A stretch of DNA of 64,000 nucleotides from an uncultured Pirellulales bacterium (GTDB lineage Bacteria > Planctomycetota > Phycisphaerae > Sedimentisphaerales > Anaerobacaceae): NCBI GenBank assembly GCA_964513655.1, contig CAZENQ010000004.1:3759-67758 (forward strand). Reading direction: 5' to 3'. The translations under genes were made by a program, and so were the position numbers. The notes below the pieces were generated by a model. It did not search any database, was not told the origin of the DNA, and saw nothing but the letters and a program-made list of their open reading frames with translations. Shown one piece after another: positions 18,329-34,758 of this stretch. Each line of letters opens with the position of its first letter. The stretch's first letter is position 1.

Positions 18329-18625
18329 GCGGATGTTGATGGACCTAACGGCCCGTGGATTGACCGCTACGAAGATCGAACTCGGAGGATCCAAGAGGCG
18401 ATAGACTCAGCCATCAGCGGCGGTACGATTCCTGGGCTGAGTATCAGCAGGAGGCGCGCAAAAGGTGCGGGTTGTATCGATATTTGCGGGCGGCAGCTAT
18501 CATTAGGACAGCCTGTAATGACGGGCAGTTCAGACAGACTGTCCTTTGTCCGATGTACCTTCGACGGCGCCATACCACCACCCCCCCACCGTTTAGGTAC
18601 ATTCTCATTACTTTACAGTATCTGA
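18329..18625 (+). pseudogene. possible relic of a beta-helix protein N-terminus (open frame without start codon)
   Basis: A 98-codon open frame begins right after a TAG and has no ATG/GTG/TTG in its first 60 codons. It translates to ...RIQEAIDSAISGGTIPG...GAGCIDICGRQLSLGQ...SFVRCTFDG. This resembles the IQAAIDxxxxGDTI...PG cap of the 2463..5693 protein. Confidence 0.2.
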
Positions 18626-19473
18626 CGTCTCCGTAACCAGCCGACGAAGCAAATACCAATACCACCGAGTACTATCGCGCTGGGAGCCGGGATGAAAGTA
18701 GTGTCATGTGAGCCCGGGTTAATATCCCACGTACTGTGAAAATCGGTTGGATTGCCATCAACGAACGTTTCATAGCCATAAACATCAAAGTGGACCCAAT
18801 CGAACCCGTTCACGTCGACCGTAAACGTCAACTCATCACCCAGGCTGCCCGTAAGAGGCGGGAAGCCAGGGTCACCAGGCGCCACATAGTCACCGTCATC
18901 GGTATCGGCGTTATAGTTGTGAACTAGCATACAAGGGTCGATCTCACCTATCCCGTAGAGGAGAAAGTCAGAGACGCCCTCCTGGAAGGGATAGTGGTTG
19001 TTGTTGAGCTGGGGACCATCCGGAAGGAAGTCCTTGCCGGTATAGCCGTCATAGCCCATTGCATTGCCCAGCTCATTTGTCAATATTTCTATATTGGCAT
19101 TGGCATCAGGGTTATAGTAGCTGCCTTCGTAGAGAATAGTGCCCGTCGTGTGCAGCAATTCCAAGGGAGTACCGCCACCATCCGGCGTTATGGTAATTTG
19201 TCCGGTCTGACCCTCCGGGACAGAGACAAGCAGCGTGACCTCCGTAAGGCTCAATGTTGCTGATTGGCCTTGTCCCTTGGACGCCTGATAGGCTCCGACA
19301 ACGACGAGGCTAAACGGGGTTTCGTCGACCAGCCAACTATCTTCATCCTGTCCCCAGTCACCGGCCATAGCGTCGCTGTCGTAACCGAAGACCTGAAAGG
19401 TGGGTACAGCAAACAGGGATTGAGTGAGTAAAAAAGACACTGTAATACTCAGTATTATTTTAGTAATTTTCAT
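18613..19473 (-). CDS. PEP-CTERM sorting-domain protein (exosortase cargo candidate)
   Basis: I prefer the ATG at 19473 (GGAGG upstream) over the TTG at 19494. Signal peptide MKITKIILSITVSFLLTQSLFA. The C-terminus FIPAPSAIVLGGIGICFVGWLRRRQIL has a P-x-P motif, a TM helix and an Arg cluster. Confidence 0.8.
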   Translation of the reverse strand: MKITKIILSITVSFLLTQSLFAVPTFQVFGYDSDAMAGDWGQDEDSWLVDETPFSLVVVGAYQASKGQGQSATLSLTEVTLLVSVPEGQTGQITITPDGGGTPLELLHTTGTILYEGSYYNPDANANIEILTNELGNAMGYDGYTGKDFLPDGPQLNNNHYPFQEGVSDFLLYGIGEIDPCMLVHNYNADTDDGDYVAPGDPGFPPLTGSLGDELTFTVDVNGFDWVHFDVYGYETFVDGNPTDFHSTWDINPGSHDTTFIPAPSAIVLGGIGICFVGWLRRRQIL

Positions 19474-19620
19474 ACTACCTACTTTTACCTCCAAAGGCTC
19501 TCAGGGTGCTGCAAACAGACATCACATCTTTCTGATGTGCTTGCCAGCTATCCTGTCAAGCCTCAGATTTAAGTTAGTCATTTATTCGAGAATACGCTCT
19601 TAGAGGTTTGAAGGAATCTC

Positions 19621-20424
19621 TCAGGCCTGGAGAGGGGGCCCACGCGGCAGGTTGTCAAAAGTAAACGCGGGAAAAAAAATAACAGGCTGCTCAGCTAGTG
19701 AAGCTGTGCGGTTGTGTGCTATAATCAGGTGAGACGAAAGCGAAATTATTGCAGATTGATACGTTCCGGTCTTATCGTGTGTCTGCACAGAAGTATTGAA
19801 ATATTTGGAACGGGAGCAAAGCGGTGAAATATCCAAGTTGTTCGGTATTCCAGCGAGATGGTGCAGGAGGCCTATATATTGCGTGCCTTCGATATCGCTT
19901 CGAGGCCGGCGAGAATTCTCGAGGCAATATGAGTATGTAAGCTGTGCAACAGACCTATGCTCGATGTGATTAGTTCTATGTGCAAGTCGCAGGGCCAATT
20001 GTGGAAGGGCCTGAAAACCAGTCTGGCCCGCCCACAGCAGAGCAGCCAAAGCTGATAACCAAACTCTCCGGTCCCTGACGAGCGAAACACAGAGAAATCC
20101 GGACAAGAGCACGAAGATGGCCGGGGGCACAGCCGGCAGGGGCTTTACGAGGTGTGTGAAACTTTGAGAGCCTGGATGGACCGGCGGCTGTAAGAATTCC
20201 CTTGCGAGATGCGCGAGTTTTGTATTGGCAGGTTGCAGGAGGTTGTCAATACTACCGGAGATTGCAGCAGGAGCATAGACGGGACACGAATCTGTCATCA
20301 GACCAGCATTTCGGATTGTTACTGTTGGGGAAGCTTTGGCAGTAGAAAGCGCGCACAACAAAAGGATTATGCACGCAGATGTGAACACTGCGAAGGGGCG
20401 TTTTGTTTTGCCTGAGGTTACCAC
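19621..20424 (-). CDS. hypothetical protein with signal peptide and an internal PEP-CTERM-like segment
   Basis: ORF track. Signal-like N-terminus FAVFTSACIILLLCALSTAKA. Mid-protein segment LPAVPPAIFVLLSGFLCVSLVRDRR, followed by about 150 further residues. Confidence 0.45.
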   Translation of the reverse strand: MVTSGKTKRPFAVFTSACIILLLCALSTAKASPTVTIRNAGLMTDSCPVYAPAAISGSIDNLLQPANTKLAHLAREFLQPPVHPGSQSFTHLVKPLPAVPPAIFVLLSGFLCVSLVRDRRVWLSALAALLWAGQTGFQALPQLALRLAHRTNHIEHRSVAQLTYSYCLENSRRPRSDIEGTQYIGLLHHLAGIPNNLDISPLCSRSKYFNTSVQTHDKTGTYQSAIISLSSHLIIAHNRTASLAEQPVIFFPAFTFDNLPRGPPLQA

Positions 20425-21189: not shown

Positions 21190-24100
21190 TTAAACTCCTT
21201 GAGATAATTTTTCAAGCAGACGCCGGACTTCAGTAACGTCTGTTGACGATAAACCACCAAACTCAGCATTCATTTTCAAAGCTCTTCTTAGCGTTTCAAT
21301 CGCTTGCTGCTTTTGTCCAACCTTGGCCAAAGCTCTCCCTAAATGTAAGTACGAAGCCACGGCCGAGGAAGTTCCGTGGGGATACATTTCCAAGCATCTT
21401 GTGAAATCCTGAATGGCTTTGTCATATTGACCGAGTTTGTAATAAGCGACGCCGCGAGTATCAATGAGGTCTATATATTCAGGGCTGGTTCTTAAGCCCC
21501 GCTGTGCGAGGTCGATCGCTTCTCGACAGTTACCATACTCCTGACACATTATCCACGCCAGATTATTGATGGCGATTACATTATCAGGGTGAATTGTAAG
21601 AATCTGGCGGTACAGTTCGGCCGATTCGGGTGAGCGGCCGGTCAGTTGCAACAGCAAGGCGAGAGCACTCATAGCCTCGGTGCAACCAGAATCATGTTCC
21701 AATATCATCCGAAGAATAACTTCGGCTGTTTTTTCAGCCTGGCTGTTTCCACTTGTTACCAAGTGCCCGGCAATAGCAATGGGCGTATGAGTATCATCTA
21801 TATGGCTTCGATACCAATCGCAGACCTTGTGGTTTAGTTGTTCCCAGAGTTCGTCGTCCTTAAGCAGCCGGGCTTGTGTCAGCAATGGACCCGGATCATC
21901 AGGGGCAGACTGAACGAGAGAGTCAAACTCCTTCTGAGCATCTGCCTTGTTGCCGTTTTTGTGCAATGCCGCAGCAAGGGTAAGTCTTATTTTTCGTTCC
22001 TCGGCGGCACTGCTACAGGAGATTAGTAGCTTTTTGAGCAGATTTACGGCTTCTTCAGACTGGCTTGCAGCCAGATATGTATCGGCCAACAGTAGTGCAA
22101 TATCGATGTCATTTGGGTCGGAGTCCTGTAATGCCTTGAGGGTTGGAATCGCCAATGCCGGGGAGCGTGCCGCCTCTGCCCTGGCTTTCAAGAGGAGCAG
22201 GGATTTATCATTAGGGTGATAAACAAGTCCCCGCAAGACAATATCTATGGCCTTGAGGGATTGTTGCCGGCGAAGTGCGACTTCTGCCAGGAGTGCCCAT
22301 GCTTCGCTGAGTATAGGCTGGTCTTCGGTGATTTTTTGGAGGATGTCCAGGGCCTTTTCGGTAGCGGCAGCATTTCCTTCAGCGAGTAAGAGACGAGCTT
22401 TGTAGAGATGCAGTTCAGTATCTTCAGTATATAAGGTGAGAGCGTTATCAAGAATATTTTCTGCTTCGCGCAATGCATCGGGATTGACGGCGGCCAAGAG
22501 AAGAGAGAGCGTGCGTTTGGAGATTCCGAGGTTATCAGGCTCCAAGGACCCTGCTTTTTTGATGTTGGTGACAGCTTTGTCGAGGTGGCCTTTGGAGCGG
22601 TAGAAATCGCTTCTGGCTGTCCACGCCTGAACATTATTCGGCTCTAAGGTAGTGGCGTGCTCAAAATCTTTTTCGGCTTTATCATGTTGGCCAAGCATGG
22701 TATATGTTCTGGCGCGAAGAATATATGAGAAAGCGTTATTAAACTCGCTCATTATCTGTTCACACAGCAACAAGGCTTTGTCAGATTTGCCCTGTCGAGC
22801 ATTCAGTTCAATCTGCGCGACTATTACCGGCAGTGCATTGGGTTGCTGAGTCTTTAATTGGCTCAGCAACTGAACTGCCTCAGAGAACTTGTTTTGTCGC
22901 ATTTTGAGCAATGCAAGGGAAAAACAGATAGACGGGTCATTGGGGTCATCAGCCAGTAAGTTTTCGAGGATATCACATGCGGAACTCAGCCTGCCACGTT
23001 TGAGGTGACTTTGCAACTGGAGTTTTTTCAGTTCTGGATGGAATATTTTTTCGCTGGCTGCCCGGTGGAGAATTTCGTCAGCGCGGTCGTACTCATTTGC
23101 CTTGTAGAGTGCAGCCACAGCGGGAACTATTATGCGAAGATCCTGGGGCGAATAATTCAAGGCCTCGTTGTACGTTGAAATTGCGAGCTTTAACTTGCCG
23201 AGCCGTTCATAAGTCGCTGCAAGAAGTACTCGGGGGGCCTGGTCATCGGGATTAGCAAGCAGAGACTCTTTAAGAAGCGAGATGATTTGGGGATAGTAGT
23301 TTTTGAAACTGTCAGAGGCAAACCAGACTCTTGCCTGTTCATATCGCCATTGCCAACCCTGCTCGCCCTCAATGGTCTTGATTTCGTCGACCAGTTGCTG
23401 GGCCCGGTCGGGGTTCTTTATGACTTTTGCACACTTTAGAAGTTCGCGTTTGAGAAGTAGGTCGTTTGGCAGGTTGTGAACGAGCGTGTTGAGCAGCTGG
23501 TAGGCACTTTCATCCTTGTTGGCCTGGCTATAAATACCAGCCAAGAGCAGACCCAGTTCTCTGGTCGCGGTGGGTTCATGAATACGAGTCAGCGCCTCTT
23601 CAATGATGTTTTCACACTCTTGCATCCTGCCCTTTGCGGCCAACAAAGCCGTGAGAGATTTTAAGAGTTTGACAGATTCTGGAGATATCTTGACAGCTTC
23701 GTACAACTTTAGAATTGCCTGCTCAGTTCTTTGCTGAGCTGTTAAGATTTCAACTTCTGCCAAAGTAATTTCCACATAAGCAGGATAGCTTTGTTTTATC
23801 TCATCGAGCAGGCGCTGAGCCTCACTGAACTGCGATCGCTGGGCGGCAAGTTGAACGTGGAGAACCTTAACCTGGAGGGTCTTGTTTGGAGCCTTTTGCA
23901 GTTCAGCCAAGTGGTTTTCTATGTCAGTCCATAAGGGAGAATCTTTATCTGTCTTTCTTTGGGTAAGCACCTTTATCTGTGCCTGAATATACAATAGAGC
24001 CGGGTCTGGACTGCCAAGAGAAATTTGCATTGCCGCACGGGCTTGTTCTGCTGCGTCGATCCAGCTTGCGGTTTCAACCAACAATCTAATAAGATTCAAG

Positions 24101-25362
24101 CGTGCACGGATGGAATCCGGTTTGTCAGACACGAGGGTACGTAGCTGGCGGATGGCGGCTTGTTTGTCGCCCAATCGTGACAGAGCTGCGGCCAGAGCAA
24201 GGCGGACCCTTGTAGATTCATCTCCCAACTGAATTGCCTGCCGGTAGCATTTGACGGCTTGGTAACCACGGCCTCTCTTGTCGGCTACAAGTCCTTCAAG
24301 AAAAGCAGTAATTGACGGGGCTATACTTTTGCGGCGCAATTTTGAGATACAGTCAGCAGCAAGGTCAAGTTCATTGCACTCGATATACAACTCCGCGGCA
24401 GTGGGCATAAAATCCCAAGGTTGAGAAGCTAGCTGTTCTAGGCCTGATTCCGCAATTTTTAGCATTTTTGTTTTCGAGCGTGACTTCAAAGCGAGCTGAG
24501 CCCAGGTCTGCCACAGGGCCTGAGCGGTGGGCATGTTATTTTGCAGGAAGCTCAGGTGTATTTCGGCCCTGTCTAAGATGTCTGCGTCGATGAGTTCTTT
24601 GGCAAGCCGCAGGCGAACAAGGTTGCCTGACAGATCCAGCTCTTCGGCCTGTTGCAAGTCAGTTAAAGCTTTGGGTTTTTGTTTTGTTCTTAGATGGAAA
24701 GCGGCACGAATAAGATGTGCCAAGGCCGAGGATGGATTGTTTTTTATCGCCTCGTCGAACCAGTATTCAGGAACAGCGGAGAAATCCTGCGGATAGCGCT
24801 CAATTAATTTCCCCAACATCTCGTAAGCCAGTACTTCTTCAGGATGTTCCGTGACGATGGTTCGCAACTGGTCCGCGGCTTGTTCGAGGTCGCGCTGCCT
24901 GGCCATTGATACTGCGAGCATTCTGCGGATTTTGGGATTTTCATTTGTTTGGAGGTATCGTTCGGCAATCAGCTGTGCCTCAGCCGGGATATTCATCTGT
25001 AAATAAAGAGAGACGAGGTTTTTGGCAGCAGCTAGATTGCTCTTGTCAATCCTGAGAATACTGCGGTAAGAGGCAACAGCCTGTTGAATGTTGCCCCGCT
25101 GCAGAGGCCTGATATTAAGCTGGGCATGGGCGTACTTGAGTATGACTTGCACGTTTGTCTGCTCCACATTGAGGTAGCGTCCCAATTTTTCGGCAGCCTC
25201 CTGCCAGTTTTGAGTTTCGTAGGCTTTCAAGCCAGCATCGCGTGCGGTGTACACCATACGGTTTCGTCGCCATTTTCGAAGGCCAACAGCAGTTATTACC
25301 AACACGCCGAGGGCAATTAGAAGCACAATTGCCAGCATCCAGTTAAAACGTTTTCTTGCCAT
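21190..25362 (-). CDS. membrane-anchored giant TPR-repeat protein (PrsT-like, PEP-CTERM system-type)
   Basis: N-terminal TM helix WMLAIVLLIALGVLVITAVGL, then about 1300 aa of TPR-like helical repeats (recurring A..Y...L...P....A...LA motifs). It sits next to the priming transferase, as in described exosortase EPS loci. Confidence 0.8.
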   Translation of the reverse strand: MARKRFNWMLAIVLLIALGVLVITAVGLRKWRRNRMVYTARDAGLKAYETQNWQEAAEKLGRYLNVEQTNVQVILKYAHAQLNIRPLQRGNIQQAVASYRSILRIDKSNLAAAKNLVSLYLQMNIPAEAQLIAERYLQTNENPKIRRMLAVSMARQRDLEQAADQLRTIVTEHPEEVLAYEMLGKLIERYPQDFSAVPEYWFDEAIKNNPSSALAHLIRAAFHLRTKQKPKALTDLQQAEELDLSGNLVRLRLAKELIDADILDRAEIHLSFLQNNMPTAQALWQTWAQLALKSRSKTKMLKIAESGLEQLASQPWDFMPTAAELYIECNELDLAADCISKLRRKSIAPSITAFLEGLVADKRGRGYQAVKCYRQAIQLGDESTRVRLALAAALSRLGDKQAAIRQLRTLVSDKPDSIRARLNLIRLLVETASWIDAAEQARAAMQISLGSPDPALLYIQAQIKVLTQRKTDKDSPLWTDIENHLAELQKAPNKTLQVKVLHVQLAAQRSQFSEAQRLLDEIKQSYPAYVEITLAEVEILTAQQRTEQAILKLYEAVKISPESVKLLKSLTALLAAKGRMQECENIIEEALTRIHEPTATRELGLLLAGIYSQANKDESAYQLLNTLVHNLPNDLLLKRELLKCAKVIKNPDRAQQLVDEIKTIEGEQGWQWRYEQARVWFASDSFKNYYPQIISLLKESLLANPDDQAPRVLLAATYERLGKLKLAISTYNEALNYSPQDLRIIVPAVAALYKANEYDRADEILHRAASEKIFHPELKKLQLQSHLKRGRLSSACDILENLLADDPNDPSICFSLALLKMRQNKFSEAVQLLSQLKTQQPNALPVIVAQIELNARQGKSDKALLLCEQIMSEFNNAFSYILRARTYTMLGQHDKAEKDFEHATTLEPNNVQAWTARSDFYRSKGHLDKAVTNIKKAGSLEPDNLGISKRTLSLLLAAVNPDALREAENILDNALTLYTEDTELHLYKARLLLAEGNAAATEKALDILQKITEDQPILSEAWALLAEVALRRQQSLKAIDIVLRGLVYHPNDKSLLLLKARAEAARSPALAIPTLKALQDSDPNDIDIALLLADTYLAASQSEEAVNLLKKLLISCSSAAEERKIRLTLAAALHKNGNKADAQKEFDSLVQSAPDDPGPLLTQARLLKDDELWEQLNHKVCDWYRSHIDDTHTPIAIAGHLVTSGNSQAEKTAEVILRMILEHDSGCTEAMSALALLLQLTGRSPESAELYRQILTIHPDNVIAINNLAWIMCQEYGNCREAIDLAQRGLRTSPEYIDLIDTRGVAYYKLGQYDKAIQDFTRCLEMYPHGTSSAVASYLHLGRALAKVGQKQQAIETLRRALKMNAEFGGLSSTDVTEVRRLLEKLSQGV

Positions 25363-25396: not shown

Positions 25397-27208
25397 TTAG
25401 AACTGACCAATAAAATTTTGAATGAGTTTCTTAACGGTTTTCCAACACAGCCACAAATCGATCTTCAAGGACAAATTTCTGACGTATTCTATGTCGTAGT
25501 ATATCCACTCCTGAAAGTCTTTTGTTGGCTCGCGAGTTCTGCAAACCTGCCAAAGTCCTGTGATTCCGGGTCTAACGGAAAGGCGGGCGTCTCTCCAAGA
25601 GGGGCAGAGGGTATTCTCGGCCTCCGGTGAAGGCCTAGGGCCGACAACACTCATCTGGCCGAGCAAGACATTTACAAACTGAGGTATTTCATCGATATGT
25701 GTACCTCGCAAAAATCTGCCGACTGCGCTAGTCCGCGGATCATTCTCGATTCTGAATTGTGGTCCATCAACCTGATTTATACTTCTTAATTTATCCTGTA
25801 ACTTATCAGCACCGGCCAGCATGGTCCTGAATTTCAGACAGTTGAAGGTCTTACCTTGCAGCCCCTGGCGTTTGTCCCTGAAAAAGACAGTTCCCGGGGA
25901 GTTAAGTGCTATTGCCAAAGCGATAAAGGGCGTTATGGGTACAAACAGGATGAGCACGACGACAGCAGCGACGAGGTCAGCAATTCTCTTAAAACACCTC
26001 GCATAGGAGAACTTCGGCCATGTTCGAAAGTTGTTTATGCGGGAGTTGTTGCAAGTTATCACGGTGTCTTTGTCCGGGAGTGAGTAAGCTTTTCTAATTG
26101 GACCAGACTTTTTGGAATGGCGCTGTTGTCGAGCCCTCGAGCCTGTTATTTGGTGTTTTGGGCGCTGGCTAATAAGCACACGGTTTTGCACGAACTGGTT
26201 CTTCGTAATAGAAATACCAGAACGAATGACAGATGTTCTTATGACGGCCCCGGTTTTGATTTTGACGTCGTCTCCGATAATGGCCGGCCCTATTATAATT
26301 GCATTTCGGGCAACACTAACGTTTCGACCGAACAAAACCTTCCCAAACAATCTGGCATCGGGTGATATTGTGACGCCGCTTTCATCCGGGAGTTGCTTGT
26401 GGGATTTTCTGTTTTGATCAGGATAATTCCATCCGGGAGAATTGAGACCTGCTACCAAGAAGGCGAGCAAACCTTCTTCTGTACCTAAATCCAATACGGT
26501 GCCACCAATATTGAGACTGCGCAGTGTCAGTGAGTTTGAGGAACACTCATCAATAAAGCTGGAAAAAGCGAGAGGTAAAGCACCATTCACGAGGAGCCTG
26601 CTGAGGACGTCGGTCTTTATAAAAAGGTAGTGCGGCCAATCGGCGGGCATTGGTGCTGGTTGTATCAGATTATCGTAGAACCGTCGAAATCCGACGAGGT
26701 CACCTTGCGTAGTAATTATCGCCTTTTCATTGGCGGCCTGTAAGTGAGCAAGTAAATTGACCGCTATGACGTCGGCTCGAAGCCGGCCCAACATTTTATA
26801 CAACCGCTGGAGATCTATTTTAGCTGCAAATCTTCCGTTTGAGATAATAAACCATGCGTTCGGTTTGGACGATTTTGCAGCCAACACGGACACAGGCAAA
26901 CTGTCTCTGTAATATATTATATTTGATTCAGCCTTTTTTGCGAACTTGCGTCGGAGGCTTTCAGTGTAAGTGGTTTGGGTGTGAGGGGCCCAGCTTTGGG
27001 GCATTGCTATGACGCCGCTGTTACTTCGATGGTGAGCATCACCGTTTAAGCAACTAACAGTGATACCCGAAAAAGGTTCGCTGCAGAAAGCAAGTCTAAG
27101 CAGCTTTGAGGGTTCGGAAATCGTCGGACCCTGTTGAGCAGTGCAGCGTGCATCATTAACGGGCGAATTCTTATTCTGGTGTATAACGATTAATTTCATA
27201 CTATTCAT
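25397..27208 (-). CDS. priming sugar-phosphate transferase (Bac_transf/EpsB-WbaP type) fused to an N-terminal nucleotidyltransferase-like + left-handed beta-helix module
   Basis: The C-terminal 200 aa read KRIADLVAAVVVLILFVPITPFIALAIALNSPGTVFFRDKRQGLQGKTFNCLKFRTM...DGPQFRIENDPRTSAVGRFLRGTHIDEIPQFVNVLLGQMSVVGPRP. Residues ~285-345 carry hexapeptide repeats NVSVARNAIIIGPAIIGDDVKIKTGAVIRTSVIRSGISI. Confidence 0.85.
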   Translation of the reverse strand: MNSMKLIVIHQNKNSPVNDARCTAQQGPTISEPSKLLRLAFCSEPFSGITVSCLNGDAHHRSNSGVIAMPQSWAPHTQTTYTESLRRKFAKKAESNIIYYRDSLPVSVLAAKSSKPNAWFIISNGRFAAKIDLQRLYKMLGRLRADVIAVNLLAHLQAANEKAIITTQGDLVGFRRFYDNLIQPAPMPADWPHYLFIKTDVLSRLLVNGALPLAFSSFIDECSSNSLTLRSLNIGGTVLDLGTEEGLLAFLVAGLNSPGWNYPDQNRKSHKQLPDESGVTISPDARLFGKVLFGRNVSVARNAIIIGPAIIGDDVKIKTGAVIRTSVIRSGISITKNQFVQNRVLISQRPKHQITGSRARQQRHSKKSGPIRKAYSLPDKDTVITCNNSRINNFRTWPKFSYARCFKRIADLVAAVVVLILFVPITPFIALAIALNSPGTVFFRDKRQGLQGKTFNCLKFRTMLAGADKLQDKLRSINQVDGPQFRIENDPRTSAVGRFLRGTHIDEIPQFVNVLLGQMSVVGPRPSPEAENTLCPSWRDARLSVRPGITGLWQVCRTREPTKDFQEWIYYDIEYVRNLSLKIDLWLCWKTVKKLIQNFIGQF

Positions 27209-27260: not shown

Positions 27261-29582
27261 TCAGGATTTTGCATTGTCGTGATTTTTGTCGGGTTGCTCC
27301 ACGGGCAGCAGAAGTATGGTTTTGTTGCCCTTCCTGCGAGTGGTTTTGGCTGCGGTCCGACCAGCGTAGTAACCGTAGGCGTAACGGTTATAGCTGTAGT
27401 TAGCGTGGACGCTATTGAGGACTGTACCCAGCACTCTGACTTTTACCTGGGCCATTCGCTCGAGGGTCTCCTTCAAATCCTGCTCTTCAGTATGGCCGGC
27501 AAAGCTGGTCAGAATGACTCCATCGGCTATCTTTGCCCATAACAGCGCATCAGGGAAGGCCAGCACCGGGGGGGTGTCAATAATCACATGGTCATATTTT
27601 TCGCTGACAGCATTGAGATATTCGCTAATATACGGCTGTGAGAGCATCTCACAGGAAGCGGGGAGATTTTGCGAATCAGCGGTCAGCACATCCAATCCGG
27701 CCAAGGGGGTGGAACGGGTGATATTTTCGAAGCTCTTGCCTAAGAGTACATCCTGCAACCCTACTGAATCTTTAGGGAGATTCAGCAGCCACCGAATATC
27801 AGGTTTTCTCAGGTCACCGTCAATCAACAAGACTTTTTTGCCCGCCTTAGCCAGACTTGTTGCGAGATTAATGGCAAATGTGGTTTTTCCATCGCGAACA
27901 CCGGGACTTGTAATAACCAACTTATTTGGTATTCCGCCCCCGTTGAGCAGGCCCAAGTTGGCGCGAATAGTCTGGTAATCAGTTGCCATCTGCTGAGGCA
28001 GCTTGGGTATGTCAAGGTAATCAGGATTGGTAGTAGTGCCAATTATTCGGACTCCCACTCGTTTGGTGAGATCGGTGGGAGTTCGTATGCTGTGATCGGC
28101 CTTGTCCTTGAGAAAAGCGAGGAACACGCCACACATCAGGGAACCGAGTACGAGAGCGGCAGAATATTTGATGTGTTTGTTTGGAAGTGTGATGCTGCTG
28201 GCATAATAAGCGATGGAGATTCGGGCGGGGCGTTTTCTTTCCATTTCGAGTTCCTGAATGCGTCGCTGCACTGTTTCATAGAGGTCTTTTGTACGATTGA
28301 GCTGGTCCTGCAAGTCCTGCATAGCCAGCTGCTTTCGGCCAAGTCCGATTGTTTCGGCATCCTCTTCAGCGAGCATATTCTTGAGACGCTTTTCATAGGC
28401 AGTGACCTGCTCTAACTCAGCCTTTACGTTTGTTAGCTGTGTTTTGTCGCTCTTGGCCAATTCTTTAACTATCATCTGGTCGAAACTTTGGCCGACTTCC
28501 TGACGCCGTTGTTCAAGACACTGCGCCAACGTTTCTGAAACTTCGGTTCTACGCTGGAGCTCGGGGTTGGTGGGCGCCAAGGTCTGTTTTGCAACAATCA
28601 GAGACTGCTGCATTTCCGCAACATTTGTAGTTAAGGTCTGAACCATGCGGTCGGCATTTATGAAATCGTAGCGCAGTCTCAGCAAATCTTCAGGTCTCAT
28701 GCTTTGTTCTTCGGTTTGTTCGAACAGGTGCACCTGTGCCTCAAGGGCTATTTTTCGCATTTCGATTGTTGTGAGCTCGGCCTGTAGGGCGGCGACTCGC
28801 TGTAGCATAATCTCCTGACGTCCGGTGAGCGCCTGAGTACCGTACTCCTGCGCTATTTCCCGGACGGTCTGGCGTTGTCTTTCGAGCCTTTCGCTCAAGA
28901 CTCTGCGTTCATTTTCCAAGACGGTGAGCTTGCGGTCTCCACCTTTAGCTTCATCGGAGACTACGATAGCCATGTAGGCTCGCACAAAGGCGTTTACTAT
29001 TTGTACCGCTTCTCGGTCATCAGCGTTTTTCATGCTTATCTTTATCAATTCGCTGTTGCGTTCGGGGTTGACGCTCAGGGTTCCGCTGGTTACTGCCGCT
29101 CTCAAGATGATAACGGGATCAGGGGGTGGTTCGGTGTGAGATCTGTTTCTCAGGGCATCAAGAGCATTATTAGTCCTTTCAAAGAACTTCAGGTCTTTGT
29201 CGACGAGTTCATCAGCCACTCTTTGTAGAACTTTATCGCTGGCAATCAGGTCTGCCTGGGTGTTTTTAAAGTTATTGTACATTGGTATTACACCTTCAGA
29301 GTCACTGTCGCTAAATAAGATGCTGGGGATAATGGGCGCGACCCGAATTGCGGCAGTGGCCTGATAGACAGGTTGTGCCAAGTGCCACACGCCTGGTATG
29401 CCGATTGCGCACATCAATAAGAATGTCAACAAGACGATACGCCAGCGCCGAAGTATAGGTACTGCCACCGTCGGGTTGCGGTCGTCTTCGATTCCGACGG
29501 GACCTTCAAAGCGGGCAAGGTTCTGGACCACTTGCTGATCCTGGTACTTGCTTATATTTTCCATTGTGTTACCTTTCGTCAA
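27261..29582 (-). CDS. polysaccharide co-polymerase / tyrosine autokinase (Wzc/GumC/EpsG-like)
   Basis: Wzz-like N-terminal domain with TM helix, then a long coiled coil. Walker A in SPGVRDGKTTFAINLA, followed by LLIDGDLRKPD. Walker B-like VIIDTPPVLAFPDA. C-terminal Tyr cluster NYSYNRYAYGYYAG. Confidence 0.9.
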   Translation of the reverse strand: MTKGNTMENISKYQDQQVVQNLARFEGPVGIEDDRNPTVAVPILRRWRIVLLTFLLMCAIGIPGVWHLAQPVYQATAAIRVAPIIPSILFSDSDSEGVIPMYNNFKNTQADLIASDKVLQRVADELVDKDLKFFERTNNALDALRNRSHTEPPPDPVIILRAAVTSGTLSVNPERNSELIKISMKNADDREAVQIVNAFVRAYMAIVVSDEAKGGDRKLTVLENERRVLSERLERQRQTVREIAQEYGTQALTGRQEIMLQRVAALQAELTTIEMRKIALEAQVHLFEQTEEQSMRPEDLLRLRYDFINADRMVQTLTTNVAEMQQSLIVAKQTLAPTNPELQRRTEVSETLAQCLEQRRQEVGQSFDQMIVKELAKSDKTQLTNVKAELEQVTAYEKRLKNMLAEEDAETIGLGRKQLAMQDLQDQLNRTKDLYETVQRRIQELEMERKRPARISIAYYASSITLPNKHIKYSAALVLGSLMCGVFLAFLKDKADHSIRTPTDLTKRVGVRIIGTTTNPDYLDIPKLPQQMATDYQTIRANLGLLNGGGIPNKLVITSPGVRDGKTTFAINLATSLAKAGKKVLLIDGDLRKPDIRWLLNLPKDSVGLQDVLLGKSFENITRSTPLAGLDVLTADSQNLPASCEMLSQPYISEYLNAVSEKYDHVIIDTPPVLAFPDALLWAKIADGVILTSFAGHTEEQDLKETLERMAQVKVRVLGTVLNSVHANYSYNRYAYGYYAGRTAAKTTRRKGNKTILLLPVEQPDKNHDNAKS

Positions 29583-29586
29583 AAAA

Positions 29587-31581
29587 TTAATTCACAGATT
29601 TTCTAATGATTATTTCTTGTGGTTTTTCTTCAGGAACCGTGGTCAGTTTCATCAGAATCCACAGTTCAATGATTACAACTGCAAGAGCCAAAGGCATCAT
29701 GGCATATCCTCCGAAATCGTGGAATATCCTCTCCCACTTGTCGCCGGAAAGTATTGTAAACGCGATTGCGGTGATTGTTAATCGAACTGCGTTGCACACC
29801 AATGCGATGGGGAAACTGGAGAGCAGCACTATAAGCTTTTCCCACCAGGCTCTCCGGACCAACAGGACCACCAGGCCGTTGATTACGACGAATGCCGTGA
29901 CCATTCTTAATCCGTTGCAAGCCTCGGCTACGGCAACGGTAATATCATTCAAGTGTATGATATTGCCCTCTCTTATGACAGTGTACCCCATGATTTCGAG
30001 ACAGAACACTGCGGATGAGGTGGCCCAGCTCTGTAAGGGCAGCATTATGGCACTGTGGACTGCGCGTGGCAGTGGAAGCATTAGGCCCAGGAAGAGCAAC
30101 ATTGTGATGGTTTTGCGGAAGACCGGCCAGCCAAAAAGGAAAAGCACCAATGCAGCGATACTTAGAACAAGGGACAGTCTTTCGGCTGAACTGTACATAA
30201 AGAACAATCCAAAAAGCCTGAGAGCCTGGGCGGCCACGAAGGCAAACAAACCCCATATGGATGGTCTTATAGGGATTCCAATTATTTTGTGCCGTCTAGA
30301 CCACAGGATATAAAGGGCAAGTAAAGGCACCAGCAAGCCACTGGAGTATTCATCACTTCTTTGCCAGATACTCCAAAGGTCTGCAAGTTGCGGCCAATAA
30401 GACCAGAGAAAAACAGCGGAGAGAATACCTATCGCAAGTCCTTTCAAGACATCTAACGCCACCTTGTCAGACTGAACCTGTCTCGGCAACTTCGCAATCA
30501 TTGCATTGATTACCATTCTTGCGGACGAGTGCGGTCGGCCTGCTCTGATGTCAACTGATGCTACAGATTTGTTTCCGCCGCTCTTGAGATTGGCGGGATG
30601 TACTACGGCTTGATTTGCAACAATATCGTTATTGGGTATTAATGCATCATAATCGACTACACAGCTGCGGACTTCACAGTTCTGTCCGATGGTCGAACGG
30701 TCCCAGAGGACACTGTTTTCTACAAGAGAGTTTTGGCCAATGGTGACACCTCTTCCGACTATGGTTGGCCCAAAAATTATTGTGTTTCTTGATACAGTGG
30801 CACCATCCATAACTACAACGGGCCCATAAATTCGGATGTTCCGAGCGACTTTTGCGCTGTCCGCCAACCAGAGAGCTTTTGCACCATCTTTTTTGCTGCA
30901 AGGGAAGCCTATATTTACATTGTTGGCGTTCTCGAGGTAGTCCGCCGTGGCATCGAGATAGCCGGCGCGGTCGCGAAAGTTTCCAAGAGGTTGAGAGAGG
31001 ACTGCGGCGTGTACAGTTTTGCCAGCCTGTACCATGGCAGGAATCAGGCTTTCCTTGATATCGTAGTAACCATCCGTTGGGATATATTTAAGAACAGCAG
31101 GCTCGCAGACATAAATTTCTGATACACAGCGTATCTGCTCACCGTGCCTGAGGCCCGGGCTGAACATGACTGTAACATCGGCTCTTCCGATCCGGTGAGT
31201 TTTTAAGAGCATATTGAGATCAGGTGGTGAAGTAATTGCGGCAGGCAATACCAGAAGCAACGCGTTCGTATCACCATCAGCAGCATCTCTGATACACCCA
31301 GCCGTACCTACGGGCAGGGGCTCATCCAAGAACTTTAGCCGCATAGAATTAATGCCGGTAATGGACCTCTGCAACAGTGAATCATCCCCATTGGAACAAA
31401 CCACAGCCTCGGTTATTTCTTGGTGCGACAGATACCGGAGTAGGCGCTCCAGTGCTGACCTGTCCCCTATCGGCCACAGTGCCGTGGGCAGGCGTGATGC
31501 CAAAGGACAACGACCGAAATCACGCCCGCCCGCAAGGATGATGGCTTTAATATTTTGTCTATTTTGGAAATGCCTACTCAT
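29587..31581 (-). CDS. exosortase (EpsH/Xrt family) fused to an N-terminal sugar-nucleotidyltransferase-like + left-handed beta-helix module
   Basis: Residues ~10-230 are NTP_transferase-like (IKAIILAGGRDFGRCPLASRLPTALWPIGDRSALERLL). Residues ~240-320 carry hexapeptide repeats (IYGPVVVMDGATVSRNTIIFGPTIVGRGVTIGQNSLVENSVLWDRSTIGQNCEV). Residues ~385-640 are polytopic, with exosortase signatures: SDEYSSGLLVPLLALYILW, the Cys motif VAEACNGLR (Cys555, codon 29917-29919), CNAVRLT and IFHDFGGY. Confidence 0.9.
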   Translation of the reverse strand: MSRHFQNRQNIKAIILAGGRDFGRCPLASRLPTALWPIGDRSALERLLRYLSHQEITEAVVCSNGDDSLLQRSITGINSMRLKFLDEPLPVGTAGCIRDAADGDTNALLLVLPAAITSPPDLNMLLKTHRIGRADVTVMFSPGLRHGEQIRCVSEIYVCEPAVLKYIPTDGYYDIKESLIPAMVQAGKTVHAAVLSQPLGNFRDRAGYLDATADYLENANNVNIGFPCSKKDGAKALWLADSAKVARNIRIYGPVVVMDGATVSRNTIIFGPTIVGRGVTIGQNSLVENSVLWDRSTIGQNCEVRSCVVDYDALIPNNDIVANQAVVHPANLKSGGNKSVASVDIRAGRPHSSARMVINAMIAKLPRQVQSDKVALDVLKGLAIGILSAVFLWSYWPQLADLWSIWQRSDEYSSGLLVPLLALYILWSRRHKIIGIPIRPSIWGLFAFVAAQALRLFGLFFMYSSAERLSLVLSIAALVLFLFGWPVFRKTITMLLFLGLMLPLPRAVHSAIMLPLQSWATSSAVFCLEIMGYTVIREGNIIHLNDITVAVAEACNGLRMVTAFVVINGLVVLLVRRAWWEKLIVLLSSFPIALVCNAVRLTITAIAFTILSGDKWERIFHDFGGYAMMPLALAVVIIELWILMKLTTVPEEKPQEIIIRKSVN

Positions 31582-31583
31582 TG

Positions 31584-32681
31584 TTATTTACGCTGCAAGG
31601 AATTCAATAATATCCGAACAATTCGTTCACAAGCCTTGCCATCCCAGAGCCTTGGTCTGGCATGTAGTTTCGGTGTACTCAAACTCTCTCGATAGCCATT
31701 CAGTATTCCATTCGTATCAGTGCCAACCAAGACATTGGTTCCTTCAGTGATTGTAATCGGCCTTTCCGTATTTTCGCGGACTGTAAGGCACGGTATTCCA
31801 AGAATAGTAGTTTCCTCCTGAATACCACCAGAATCTGTTATGACAAGCTTTGACTCTGACATCAACTTCAGAAAATTCAAATACACCAACGGCTTAATCA
31901 GTAATATATTCGGTAAATGCTCAAGTCTTTCCATCAACCCACTTAATGCCAAGTTCTTAACAGTTCGAGGATGCGCAGAAAAAACAACCGTCATCTCTTT
32001 TTGAATTTCCGCTAATGCATTGACTATTCTAGGTAATGCTTTGTGCTGGTCTACGTTACTGGGTCTATGTAGGGTGACCACCACATATTCCTTGGCTCGT
32101 ACATTTAAATTGTTAAGTATGTCCGAATTAGCGGCCTTCCGTCTGTAAAGTTCAAGCGTATCGATCATAACATTACCAACAAAATGAACTTTTGCTCCGT
32201 CAATGCCTTCGCGCTTTAAGTTGGCTACGCCGCTTGGTTCCGTGACAAATAGAATATCACTGATGGCGTCAGTCAAAATGCGGTTTATCTCCTCAGGCAT
32301 AGTGCGGTCGAAGCTCCTTAAACCTGCTTCAACGTGTATGGTTTTTACGCTCAATTTTGCCGCGACCAGTGCACAAGCAACAGTTGAGTTTACATCGCCA
32401 ACGACCAATACTGCATCAGGGTTGTGTCTTAATACAACAGGCTCGAAGCACTTCATAACTTCAGCAGTCTGCTGGGCGTGTGAACCTGAACCAACCCTGA
32501 GATTGATGTCCGGAGTTGGGATATCAAGTGCCTCGAAGAAAGCACTGCTCATATTCTCAGTGTAGTGTTGGCCCGTGTGAACGAGTATAGATTGAATTTT
32601 TCGTGTTTTCTCGCATGCCCGCAATATACTCGCTATTTTGATGAAATTGGGTCTTGCACCAACAACGTGGATTATTTTCAC
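31584..32681 (-). CDS. wecB: UDP-N-acetylglucosamine 2-epimerase (non-hydrolysing)
   Basis: GTG start. KIIHVVGARPNFIKIASI, HTGQHY, VVGDVNSTVACALVAAK, HVEAGLRSFDRTMPEEINR and TDSGGIQEE are hallmark Epimerase_2 motifs. Confidence 0.95.
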   Translation of the reverse strand: MKIIHVVGARPNFIKIASILRACEKTRKIQSILVHTGQHYTENMSSAFFEALDIPTPDINLRVGSGSHAQQTAEVMKCFEPVVLRHNPDAVLVVGDVNSTVACALVAAKLSVKTIHVEAGLRSFDRTMPEEINRILTDAISDILFVTEPSGVANLKREGIDGAKVHFVGNVMIDTLELYRRKAANSDILNNLNVRAKEYVVVTLHRPSNVDQHKALPRIVNALAEIQKEMTVVFSAHPRTVKNLALSGLMERLEHLPNILLIKPLVYLNFLKLMSESKLVITDSGGIQEETTILGIPCLTVRENTERPITITEGTNVLVGTDTNGILNGYRESLSTPKLHARPRLWDGKACERIVRILLNSLQRK

Positions 32682-32727: not shown

Positions 32728-34758
32728 TCATCTTGGTTTTTGGCATCGGGGGCTGGTGTAAGCCAGGATTGCATGGAACAGTCTGCCGAACCTGGCTCGT
32801 ATGATTGCTTGGAGGCTTAATTTTATGAATATCGTATTGGTGATAAGATATCTCCTCCACATCCTGCGTGGTTCCTGAATGACTCTATAAAGCCATTCCA
32901 ATCCGGACTTTTGCATCCAGAAGGGGGCACGTTTGGTTAGGCCCGCGAGGACATCGAAACTGCCCCCGACGCCGTGACACACGGGCACATTGATATAGTT
33001 ATGCCACTTTGCCAAGAAGTTCTCCTTTTTGGGTGTGGGCATCGCTACAAAGAGAATATCCGGCTTGCTTTTTCTTATTTCATCGACGACCGTTTTTTCT
33101 TCGGCTTTGTTGAAGAAGCCGTCTCTGAATCCTGCTATGCGCAGGCCGGGGTAGTTGTTGGACACAGATTTAACGACTTCTGTTACCACACTCCGACTTG
33201 CACCCAGAAAGTAAACACTGCGGTTCTTTGCCGAGGAGCGTTCCAAGAGCCGATACATTACGTCAATTCCAGCGATTCTTTCGGGCAAGGCAGTTCCCAT
33301 TAATCTCGAGAGCCAGACAACTGAGAGGCCGTCGGCGAGTATAAGATGAGCCTGCTTGAGGCTTTGCCTTAATTCGGGATATCTTCGGACATTTACAAAT
33401 TTTGCCGCGTTAACGACACCCAAAAGCAGCGGTTCACAAGACGCCATATGTTTGTCAGCCAAGAGGAGCAGCTGCTCCATAGTAAGTGGACTTACGGGCA
33501 ACCCAAGTATGTCGACTGGCTCTTCTCTGCTGTTTAAGGCTTCAGTGCCAAATGTGCGCATCACCCGGCTCTCACTATTGTGTGTTATAGGCAGTATCTT
33601 GGTTTTGCTGTTGTTCGGGCTCGTGGGTGGTTTTGGCAACCGGCCAGCCCAGGCGTAAAGGACCCATCCGAGATGATAGGGGCGACATTCCCTGTTTAGT
33701 ACGTAACCGAACAAATTTTTGCCGCTCAGCCGATGTGCCGCATCCCACCCAGCAGTGATCAACGCACCACGAACGTACCTGTACATTTTAGGAATCTCAC
33801 GGCGGTGGATATCTCGCCAAATCACGCCTTTTCCTGGTGTAATCATTGTTTCGCTTAGTTCGTTGGATTTGTTGAGCCACATCAATCCCTTCTCGATGTT
33901 AGCGCTATGATTCGTGCCTGCAACCTTGTCGATTGCCAACAAAGCCATTGGTGCCATACTATCCTGGTGAACTGAGAAGACCGGATATTCCTCAGCAACT
34001 GTTCCGGTTTTGACGTTGTAATGCCACCACCACTGCCCTTTTGGTCCTTGTAATCGGCATATCGAATCAGCAGCTGCGGCGGCAGCATTAACACTGCGAG
34101 GTTCATCAAAGTGCCGGCCGTAATTGGCGAGGGCTAATATCGGATACACCTGGTCTGCGAAACAGGCTGTGTAACGTGATATGACTTCTCTAAGACCGCT
34201 TCGATTATGCCGTGCAAATAATCCAGTGTCGTGGCAATGCAAAGCCATAAGTCTGTCACGAGCGTCGTTTAGTACATCGCTTATTTCATCGGTCGCCCGG
34301 TGATGATATTGTAAGAAGCAGATTATTGCCTGCACTACCCAAGCCAGTTCAACTGCATTGCAAGCGTAGCGTAGATGCGACCATTTGTTTGCCAATTTCT
34401 GTGCCAAGACCTTAGAATCATCGACATCACTCTTGACGCCTGCCCAGATGGCCAGTCCGAGGTCTCCTGCGTTATCCACTTCCTGTCTTCTTGACCAAAT
34501 GTATTGCCAGAGGTCAGGCAGTGGCGATTCATTGTTGGGATAGAACTTCAGCCGATTTTTTATTCCTATTTGCACCATAGTTATGTAACGCAAATTCCAA
34601 GGCATATTTAAGCGCAAATTGTCGTTATCAGCCGTGAGACCTCGTCCAAGGAGATCGATGTTAGAATAACAATCATCCAAGCCCTTTTCGGCAGTAGCGC
34701 ATAATAGTTCAACAGTTTGCCAGCTTTTCGGACTTAATTTCGATAAATTGCTACTCAT
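32728..34758 (-). CDS. WecB/TagA/CpsF-family (GT26) glycosyltransferase fused to a ~370-aa N-terminal alpha-helical (alpha/alpha-toroid-like) domain
   Basis: The C-terminal ~260 aa read VDILGLPVSPLT...VNAAKFV...ILADGLSVVWLSR...VYFLGAS...RIAGFRDGFF...KPDILFVAMPTPKKE...VCHGVGGSFDVLAG...RAPFWMQKSGLEWLYRVIQEPRRMWRRY. The N-terminal domain is helical, with LQGPKGQWWWHYN and WVVQAIICFLQ-type repeats. Confidence 0.85.
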   Translation of the reverse strand: MSSNLSKLSPKSWQTVELLCATAEKGLDDCYSNIDLLGRGLTADNDNLRLNMPWNLRYITMVQIGIKNRLKFYPNNESPLPDLWQYIWSRRQEVDNAGDLGLAIWAGVKSDVDDSKVLAQKLANKWSHLRYACNAVELAWVVQAIICFLQYHHRATDEISDVLNDARDRLMALHCHDTGLFARHNRSGLREVISRYTACFADQVYPILALANYGRHFDEPRSVNAAAAAADSICRLQGPKGQWWWHYNVKTGTVAEEYPVFSVHQDSMAPMALLAIDKVAGTNHSANIEKGLMWLNKSNELSETMITPGKGVIWRDIHRREIPKMYRYVRGALITAGWDAAHRLSGKNLFGYVLNRECRPYHLGWVLYAWAGRLPKPPTSPNNSKTKILPITHNSESRVMRTFGTEALNSREEPVDILGLPVSPLTMEQLLLLADKHMASCEPLLLGVVNAAKFVNVRRYPELRQSLKQAHLILADGLSVVWLSRLMGTALPERIAGIDVMYRLLERSSAKNRSVYFLGASRSVVTEVVKSVSNNYPGLRIAGFRDGFFNKAEEKTVVDEIRKSKPDILFVAMPTPKKENFLAKWHNYINVPVCHGVGGSFDVLAGLTKRAPFWMQKSGLEWLYRVIQEPRRMWRRYLITNTIFIKLSLQAIIRARFGRLFHAILAYTSPRCQKPR

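Follow-up and report, generated by a model that had tools for sequence, protein, structure and literature searches.

How the sorting of PEP-CTERM proteins is connected to polysaccharide synthesis is, to our knowledge, still unknown. The question takes a concrete form in a locus of an uncultured Pirellulales bacterium (assembly GCA_964513655.1, contig CAZENQ010000004.1, positions 3,759 to 67,758; this whole stretch of 64,000 nucleotides is called the window below), where one gene encodes an exosortase with a sugar-nucleotide enzyme fold at its cytoplasmic N-terminus. What such a fold does on a sorting enzyme is the question followed here. The N-terminal module (N-module) resembles GDP-mannose pyrophosphorylase (GMPP) and is most likely a pseudoenzyme, as judged from its altered catalytic residues. 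It has a paralogue on the priming phosphoglycosyl transferase (PGT) encoded two genes downstream, with which it may pair.

Architecture of the fusion protein

The fusion gene is divided as follows (aa, amino acids; LbH, left-handed beta-helix; TM, transmembrane; ORF, open reading frame; AF2, AlphaFold2; pLDDT, predicted local distance difference test):

29587..31581 (-), whole fusion gene (N-module, linker and exosortase): 664-aa ORF with full-length homologues
30877..31581 (-), aa 1-235: nucleotidyltransferase fold, GMPP-like, with degenerate catalytic residues (Pfam, AF2 model, Foldseek)
31471..31536 (-), aa 16-37: altered 'G-loop' LAGGRDFGRCPLASRLPTALWP, standing for (L)xGGxGTRLxPLT...PKP
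30592..30876 (-), aa 236-330: short LbH of the GMPP/eIF2B type (Pfam, AF2 model)
30442..30591 (-), aa 331-380: basic, poorly conserved linker to the first TM helix (conservation, pLDDT)
29587..30441 (-), aa 381-664: polytopic exosortase domain (Pfam, TIGR02602, hydrophobic helices)
29917..29919 (-), codon of Cys555, the putative nucleophile, in VAEACNGLR: invariant in 53 homologues, within the TIGR04178 match
29782..29784 (-), codon of Arg600, in CNAVRLT: invariant
29719..29721 (-), codon of His621, in IFHDFGGY: invariant

An earlier note, made from the letters of this stretch alone, had described an uninterrupted 664-aa ORF that joins two parts, and the gene is indeed a single ORF of 664 codons with an ATG start and zero internal stops. 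All motifs quoted in that note lie where it placed them, including the Cys555 codon; the Gly-rich loop IILAGGRDFGRCP occupies aa 14-26 and LPTALWP aa 31-37. Its division of the protein is also borne out by HMM searches, in which nucleotidyltransferase, LbH and exosortase models match; the protein consists of a nucleotidyltransferase fold (aa 12-235), an LbH (aa 238-327) and a complete exosortase (aa 381-664). Pfam NTP_transferase (PF00483) matches aa 12-141 (E 2e-8, 34.5 bits, cut-off 21.2), LbH_EIF2B aa 238-327 (E 7e-14) and Hexapep_GlmU aa 261-321, while Exosortase_EpsH (PF09721) covers aa 389-642 (E 2e-55, 188.6 bits, cut-off 25.7). The generic exosortase model TIGR02602 gives 150.7 bits with the full protein and about 153.4 bits with aa 381-664 (cut-off 105.55), and the exosortase/archaeosortase signature TIGR04178 gives 52-54 bits at aa 549-643 (cut-off 23).

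The catalytic residues of the exosortase part are intact, as had been claimed: Cys555, Arg600 and His621 are invariant across 53 homologues. Hydropathy and the helices of the AF2 model are compatible with about eight TM helices and an N-in topology, which would turn these three residues toward the outer membrane face. The 40 residues preceding TM1 contain seven Lys/Arg, which fits the cytoplasmic side. The linker itself is less conserved than the other regions (mean column conservation 0.50 versus 0.66-0.80), and pLDDT falls below 50 over aa 311-356.

By every sequence criterion tested, the fusion protein is an exosortase, and it belongs to no named subtype. With aa 381-664 as query, none of the named Xrt models of NCBIfam 20.0 reaches its cut-off: XrtD scores 167 of 400 bits, XrtW 159 of 425, XrtA 145.5 of 208 and XrtV 94 of 313, and the remaining Xrt and cyanoexosortase models score lower. 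The supposition that no curated subtype covers the protein thus holds. In a rough neighbour-joining tree of exosortase domains, it falls within a large clade that consists almost entirely of fusions of an N-module to an exosortase (N-Xrt fusions).

Reality and spread of the fusion

Relatives were collected from three sources. A word-indexed search of 5.8 billion proteins gave more than 1000 matches, the best 120 of which were listed; an exhaustive HMMER search of 1.84 billion representatives of 50%-identity clusters gave 459 proteins at E<1e-30; and among species genomes of GTDB at least 167 stretches encode a relative, 80 of which were kept as loci. The best 120 proteins of the first search are 636-682 aa long, align with 96-100% of the query at 55-78% identity and have its Pfam domains; those that carry a name are nearly all called 'exosortase' only and come from metagenome-assembled genomes of Planctomycetota or Sedimentisphaerales. 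Both the N and the Xrt part are present in 71 cluster representatives, with identities down to 28-33%. The at least 167 species genomes belong to Phycisphaerae/Sedimentisphaerales, and the relatives in the 80 kept loci are nearly full length.

The junction (aa 331-380), which the earlier note had singled out for checking, is collinear in the best 120 homologues and in the 80 species-genome loci, among them the chromosome-level assemblies CP070728.1, CP070675.1 and OY970359.1. Its recurrence in so many independent assemblies excludes a frameshift or misassembly: the fusion is real and old. That two genes were joined through a sequencing or assembly error, for which one can cite the occurrence of split versions in other genomes and otherwise the general possibility, may be dismissed almost entirely, given hundreds of independent assemblies, complete chromosomes included, with the same collinear gene. 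Moreover, the gene for EpsI stands between the two parts in the split form, which is therefore a separate arrangement and not a frameshifted copy.

Fold of the N-module and probable loss of catalysis

The AF2 model of the fusion protein has a mean pLDDT of 66, with values of 70-87 in the N-module and of 82-86 in the LbH, which is built of regular short strands. The top Foldseek matches of the N-module are cyanobacterial tlr0611 (8x7s), plant VTC1 (7x8k) and VTC1-KJC2 (8yre) and human GMPPA/GMPPB (7d72), with E values of 1e-14 to 1e-17; the wider match set also contains GlmU, ST0452, AGPase and eIF2B gamma/epsilon (E 1e-12 to 1e-17), and a profile search of the PDB likewise finds structures of the nucleotidyltransferase type. 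On the predicted structure, the N-module is of the GMPP type, i.e., a nucleotidyltransferase fold followed by a short LbH. An acetyltransferase role of the LbH was considered and set aside, its best matches being of the short, non-catalytic GMPP/eIF2B type; no search for an acetyl-CoA site was made.

In RmlA, GlmU and GMPP-type enzymes, catalysis is defined by an Arg of the Gly-rich loop, the Lys of the PKP motif and a metal-binding Asp. All three are replaced in the N-module. Single-sequence and profile alignments, ungapped over the signature loop, to 8x7s, 2ggo, 7whr and 7x8j place GRDFGRCPLA...PTA opposite GxGTRLRPLT...PKP, so that the second Gly becomes Asp21, the Thr becomes Phe22, the catalytic Arg becomes Gly23 and the PKP Lys becomes Thr33. 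The last of these lies within LPTALWP, the stretch in which the loss of the Lys had been noticed before. Farther along, LVLPAAI aligns with fvLnsDv / lvsGDvv, and the metal-binding Asp of the 'GD' strand is replaced by Ala115; the adjacent Ala114 is at least 90% conserved in the fusion family. The replacement loop is itself nearly invariant, each of D21, F22, G23, R24, C25, P26, P32, L35, W36 and P37 being fixed or at least 90% conserved across the fusion family, and is therefore presumably selected for something other than catalysis.

The canonical GxGTR...PKP signature is absent from all 62 fused and stand-alone N proteins compared, among which most stand-alone proteins from metagenomes read LAGTYxWxxSxFExLxPRPLLPV. 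The N-module keeps a GTAG motif, and GYxDIKExLIP is a conserved motif specific to the family. Among the enzyme-level models of NCBIfam, the best gives the fusion protein 74 bits against a cut-off of 440. Together these observations suggest that the N-module is most likely a pseudoenzyme, which perhaps still binds a ligand. The substitutions of Arg, Lys and Asp in the profile alignments also speak for the earlier proposal that the module does not make a nucleotide-sugar.

Six cysteines of the N-module (aa 25, 62, 96, 159, 302 and 307) are invariant or at least 90% conserved, and Cys62 and Cys96 are kept in the wider N family too. They could form a metal or redox site.

A paralogous module on the priming PGT

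Downstream of the fusion gene follow three genes on the same strand (TPR, tetratricopeptide repeat):

27261..29582 (-), Wzc-like polysaccharide co-polymerase and tyrosine autokinase: TIGR01007 134 bits (cut-off 108), Wzz, AAA_31
25397..27208 (-), priming PGT, 603 aa: PglC-like core at aa 400-600, degenerate nucleotidyltransferase-like plus LbH module at aa 1-350
21190..25362 (-), PrsT-like TPR protein, 1390 aa: TIGR02917 (XrtA/PEP-CTERM system) 295 bits, below the cut-off of 312

The fusion gene begins 2 nucleotides after a wecB-type UDP-GlcNAc 2-epimerase gene (31584..32681) and ends 4 nucleotides before the Wzc gene, and these tiny gaps indicate a tightly packed operon. In the PGT, the catalytic core is preceded by about 395 soluble residues. 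Pfam finds Bac_transf (E 1e-57) and, at aa 293-348, Hexapep/LbH_EIF2B. Direct BLASTP comparison of the two N-modules gave marginal scores only (E 0.005-0.01), so that paralogy had to be assessed by profile-profile comparison and structure. Aligned by hhalign, the profiles of the PGT N-part and of the exosortase N-module match over 232 columns with 98.5% probability (E 3e-15), and the overlap spans the LbH and the second half of the nucleotidyltransferase fold. The AF2 model of the PGT (mean pLDDT 70, with 66 for the other of the two models) leads Foldseek from its C-part to PglC and WbaP and from its N-part to tlr0611, VTC1, GMPPA-B and eIF2B, and certain PGT homologues also score on PF00483. 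The agreement between hhalign and Foldseek shows that the exosortase and the PGT of this operon each carry a degenerate module and that the two modules are paralogues, the one on the PGT being even more degenerate.

Conserved gene order, split forms and other fusions

The order of exosortase, Wzc, PGT and TPR genes is conserved and co-directional in related loci. Wzc lies directly downstream of the fusion in 67 of the 70 loci with enough sequence, the PGT with its LbH-containing module (LbH-PGT) is present in 61 of the 62 with enough downstream DNA, and in 55 the exosortase, Wzc and PGT genes follow each other on one strand. The TPR gene is syntenic in 60 of the 80 loci.

The N-module also occurs as a protein of its own. 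Stand-alone N proteins are 320-363 aa long, share the altered loop and stop just behind the LbH. A genome of 6.15 Mb contains the split form, in which N, EpsI, exosortase, Wzc, LbH-PGT and TPR are encoded in this order by separate genes. In another locus, a stand-alone N gene with the RDFGRCP loop (L082:8001-9032) is followed by Wzc, LbH-PGT, TPR and a GerE regulator, and this operon contains no exosortase. Metagenome loci (L083-L146) were retrieved through the PGT, and 37 of them had enough upstream sequence. An N-type gene is located upstream of LbH-PGT in 37 of 37, in 29 by an automatic criterion and in eight by inspection; the eight lay outside the distance windows of the script, seven with overlapping called ORFs and one (L095) with a longer Wzc gene in between. 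The N and LbH-PGT genes are directly adjacent in 19 of the 37 loci, and Wzc alone separates them in 10. The presence of stand-alone N genes beside LbH-PGT, with no exosortase nearby, points to the PGT rather than the exosortase as the primary partner of the N-module.

One such pair is found at L100:1894-3165, a stand-alone N gene with the PGT downstream; there is often no exosortase on the metagenome contig.

Other lineages have joined the exosortase to the PGT itself. Four clusters (P0253, P0291, P0262 and P0292) from different sources contain LbH-PGT-exosortase single-chain fusions of 850-881 aa that share 48-60% identity. Wzc precedes the triple fusions at L163:9001-11646 (881 aa) and L164:2363-4984 (873 aa). 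In the two triple-fusion loci examined (P0253 and P0291), EpsI and a Wzy_C protein are encoded downstream, and downstream of the L163 and L164 fusions there are also glycosyltransferases and an ABC-2/Wzt-type transporter pair. Rosetta-stone fusions thus exist in both directions, N-exosortase and LbH-PGT-exosortase.

A proposed role for the two modules and its alternatives

Paralogue pairs are known for this fold: GMPPA/GMPPB, KONJAC/VTC1, eIF2B gamma/epsilon and the AGPase subunits all belong to it. For the observations above, an account in which the N-module and the PGT module are partner subunits is the simplest, and the closest solved relatives of the fold (7d72, 8yre, eIF2B) include hetero-oligomers in which a catalytic paralogue is joined to a non-catalytic one. 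We propose, tentatively and at a confidence that stays short of probable, that the N-module and the PGT module pair with each other in the manner of GMPPA and GMPPB and thereby tether the exosortase to the initiation of polysaccharide synthesis. The exosortase would be an active sorting transpeptidase/protease of the PEP-CTERM type, with Cys555, Arg600 and His621 near the outer membrane face, and its cytoplasmic N-terminus would carry a GMPP-like module that no longer catalyses nucleotidyl transfer and would instead serve as a docking and regulatory subunit. By pairing with the more degenerate paralogue on the priming PGT two genes downstream, this subunit would place the exosortase in one inner-membrane complex with the enzyme that starts the exopolysaccharide repeat unit, and the Wzc co-polymerase/kinase encoded between both would probably join the complex. 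Such a complex would couple the sorting of PEP-CTERM-like proteins to the start of polysaccharide synthesis spatially, and perhaps allosterically. Lineages that fuse the exosortase straight to the PGT would reach the same end by another route. Physical pairing of the modules, binding of a ligand and an effect on the activity of either enzyme are all inferred. Two precedents bear on such a scheme: GMPPA, itself non-catalytic, binds GDP-mannose and contacts its paralogue GMPPB (PMC11228364), and activation of a PGT via a cytoplasmic protein partner is possible, as in EpsW-EpsZ (PMC12802240).

Several points weigh against this proposal. The contact between the exosortase and PGT modules is deduced, and synteny and gene fusion also arise among genes that merely share a pathway. 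Both AF2 models are of moderate confidence (mean pLDDT 66 and 70), and the altered loop has a pLDDT below 50. The loss of activity is read from sequence, and a variant activity may persist: the module retains GTAG as well as FRDRAGYL, a second conserved Asp region, and Arg24, beside the canonical Arg position, might compensate for the lost Arg. The window encodes one PEP-CTERM-like substrate only. In the neighbour-joining tree, a second, distant group of N-Xrt fusions stands apart from the large clade; the N-Xrt fusion may have arisen twice, or the tree may be unreliable, the method being too crude to decide.

Three other explanations deserve consideration. The N-module might bind, without making, a nucleotide-sugar and gate the exosortase by precursor supply, with no involvement of the PGT, which is the gating idea of the earlier note. 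That the fold is kept and that GTAG and several residues of the pocket are conserved, although the catalytic ones are gone, agrees with this, and GMPPA works as such a sensor (PMC11228364; structure 7d72). Yet GMPPA senses through its paralogue partner and not alone, and the N-module is joined to the membrane domain by a 50-residue linker of poor conservation and low model confidence, which would therefore be a poor transmitter of allostery to an active site across the membrane. Since stand-alone N genes are in addition found with LbH-PGT and no exosortase nearby, this explanation is unlikely; it misses the main context, a paralogue of the N-module on the priming PGT encoded in this operon. 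It is distinctly unlikely that the N-module still works as a nucleotidyltransferase by way of an unusual active site, makes the NDP-sugar of the neighbouring PGT and was fused through operon adjacency only. Such an enzyme would account for the above-cut-off match to NTP_transferase, for the name 'NDP-sugar synthase' that stand-alone forms bear in databases, for the conservation of Arg24 and the FRD motif and for the fact that no canonical pyrophosphorylase gene was seen in this cluster. However, the loop Arg, the PKP Lys and the metal Asp are replaced in this protein, in its whole family and among the wider set of N proteins, the highest-scoring enzyme model of NCBIfam stays at 74 of 440 bits, and neutral adjacency leaves the independent LbH-PGT-exosortase fusions unexplained.

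The module could also be a target or adaptor of Wzc, linking the state of the kinase to the exosortase and the PGT with no direct pairing to the PGT module. Wzc is the next gene after the fusion in 67 of 70 loci and lies between N and LbH-PGT in many split loci, and two tyrosines of the N-module, Tyr157 and Tyr208, are invariant there and also conserved more widely in the N family; N nevertheless abuts LbH-PGT without an intervening Wzc in 19 of the 37 metagenome loci, and a role of Wzc is compatible with pairing of the modules rather than exclusive of it. We think such a role in place of pairing highly unlikely. A bolder version of pairing, to which we give a slim chance, would have the two modules form a GMPPA/GMPPB-like hetero-oligomer that senses a nucleotide-sugar and assembles exosortase, PGT and Wzc, with the exosortase moving PEP-CTERM-type proteins onto the undecaprenyl-linked glycan started by the PGT. 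If true, this would supply the chemical connection of PEP-CTERM sorting with exopolysaccharide that has long been sought.

The surrounding gene cluster and candidate substrates

From 51520 down to 19621, every substantial gene lies on the minus strand. The order of transcription begins with EpsI (DUF3485), a DUF2334/deacetylase protein, a Wzx-type flippase, methyltransferases and glycosyltransferases, continues with a polysaccharide deacetylase, FemAB/GNAT-like proteins, a phosphodiesterase, an aminotransferase, a WecG fusion and WecB, and ends with the exosortase fusion, Wzc, the PGT, the TPR protein and a 267-aa membrane protein. The remaining features of interest are:

50783..51520 (-), EpsI (DUF3485) homologue, first gene of the same-strand string: Pfam PF11984, E 9e-18
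19621..20424 (-), conserved membrane protein, 267 aa, conserved after the TPR gene, with no function assigned by family
18613..19494 (-), candidate substrate, choice-of-anchor N protein with the PEP-CTERM-like tail IPAPSAIVLGGIGICFVGWLRRRQIL: NF038141 73 bits (cut-off 40)
16581..17306 (+), Wza-type polysaccharide export protein: Pfam Poly_export and SLBB; TIGR03027 weak, 62 bits (cut-off 180)

EpsI is encoded about 19 kb from the exosortase gene here, whereas it adjoins the exosortase in split and triple-fusion relatives. A strict search for [VILAFTM]P[ED]P C-termini found no canonical PEP-CTERM protein within the window, and a looser search for P-x-P followed by a TM segment and basic residues found the IPAP variant of the candidate substrate. 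Its tail consists of IPAP, a TM segment and RRR and matches the ends of PEP-CTERM families weakly (E 0.04). Tails of the type [IV]PAP[SG]A...VGWLRRR also occur in three related loci (L024, L050 and L067), and a variant TPVPGA in L005. The 267-aa membrane protein had no family match. Conservation is highest in an internal stretch that is PEP-CTERM-like, KPLPAVPxAIF...GFxCVSLVRDRR (aa ~94-120), and a second hydrophobic helix comes after it. The protein might act as a pseudo-substrate, or it might belong to the exosortase system as an accessory membrane subunit.

The equivalog models of the XrtA system stay below their cut-offs (PrsT 295 of 312 bits, pepcterm exporter 62 of 180, EpsB_2 150 of 393, XrtA-associated kinase 96 of 231), and EpsI is recognised by the Pfam model only. 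Judged by these models, the gene set is analogous to the XrtA/PEP-CTERM exopolysaccharide system and is not the XrtA system as defined.

Some further features of the cluster may be recorded. The gene at 32728..34758 (-) encodes a 676-aa protein that has a WecG/TagA glycosyltransferase domain at aa 470-637 only, its first ~450 residues being without a Pfam or NCBIfam match. A 429-aa ORF at 44356..45645 (-) in the exopolysaccharide cluster has no Pfam match, is conserved in 23 of the 80 related loci and may be a Wzy-type polymerase. Across the window, G+C is about 54% at 1-12 kb and decreases to 42-46% at 40-64 kb, and the cumulative GC skew peaks near 28-30 kb, within the block of same-strand genes.

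Relation to known systems

Exosortases of the EpsH/XrtA type in exopolysaccharide loci (PMC1569441) share with the fusion protein the homologous membrane domain and the invariant Cys, Arg and His. They are likewise encoded within Wzx/Wzy-type exopolysaccharide clusters that contain a PrsT-like TPR protein, EpsI, a Wzc-like kinase, a Bac_transf PGT and a Wza-type exporter, with a PEP-CTERM-like protein nearby. Here, however, the putative sorting motif reads [IV]PAP[SG]A instead of VPEP, and PrsT and EpsB_2 score below their cut-offs. The earlier note had taken the known exosortase fusions to be EpsI-like. EpsI is indeed among the fusions given in the 2006 exosortase paper, the only other one there being to a CAAX-protease-like domain (PMC1569441). 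These EpsH-EpsI (XrtD, XrtW and similar) and EpsH-CAAX proteins also add an accessory domain to the exosortase core and can be read as Rosetta stones. Their partners are C-terminal and periplasmic or in the membrane, whereas the present one is N-terminal, cytoplasmic and of a sugar-nucleotide enzyme fold, and EpsI is encoded by a separate gene. We know of no named Xrt subtype for which a cytoplasmic N-extension of 380 residues has been described.

With GMPPA/GMPPB and KONJAC/VTC1, the two modules share the nucleotidyltransferase fold and the short LbH. In those pairs, one conserved paralogue is catalytically inactive and both assemble into one complex, and they are the best structural matches of the N-module (7d72, 8yre, 7x8k). 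Among the features expected of a non-catalytic pyrophosphorylase paralogue (GMPPA, KONJAC, eIF2B gamma/epsilon or GlgD type), a retained fold, degenerate catalytic residues, conservation and a paralogue in the same system were found. In contrast to these pairs, both paralogues look degenerate here and each is fused to a membrane enzyme, and sequence identity to the solved structures is only 17-20%. In eIF2B gamma/epsilon, pseudoenzymes with a nucleotidyltransferase fold and LbH form a heterodimer that acts as scaffold and regulator, and LbH_EIF2B is the best Pfam LbH model for both proteins of the window. Since eIF2B is a functionally unrelated eukaryotic translation factor, the likeness is one of fold and of 'dead enzyme pair' logic. 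The PGT has the PglC/WbaP catalytic core in common with monotopic PGTs that are controlled by cytoplasmic partners or domains, as in EpsW-EpsZ (PMC12802240) and WbaP (8t53). Its accessory module is nucleotidyltransferase-like plus LbH and is neither a receiver domain nor the cytoplasmic domain of unknown function of WbaP (PMC12802240), and the proposed partner is carried by the exosortase.

Implications

A literature search on exosortases with a nucleotidyltransferase or pyrophosphorylase fusion and on Phycisphaerae found no description of this architecture, but the fusion is not rare, hundreds of copies being already present in public databases as 'exosortase'. With so many copies deposited under unspecific names, what is new is the recognition of the fusion and its interpretation, not the sequence. 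The current names 'exosortase', 'NDP-sugar synthase' and 'sugar transferase' hide both the fusion and the probable loss of activity.

The comparison also exposes a widespread, undescribed pair, a stand-alone pseudo-pyrophosphorylase encoded beside LbH-PGT, which may regulate the first committed step of polysaccharide synthesis. Exosortases have been linked to exopolysaccharide loci through comparative genomics since 2006 (PMC1569441). For PEP-CTERM sorting and exopolysaccharide synthesis, the present family offers a physical link that is concrete enough to be tested: in one large lineage, what is most likely a dead module sits on the exosortase and its paralogue on the priming PGT, and in another lineage the exosortase is fused to the PGT outright.

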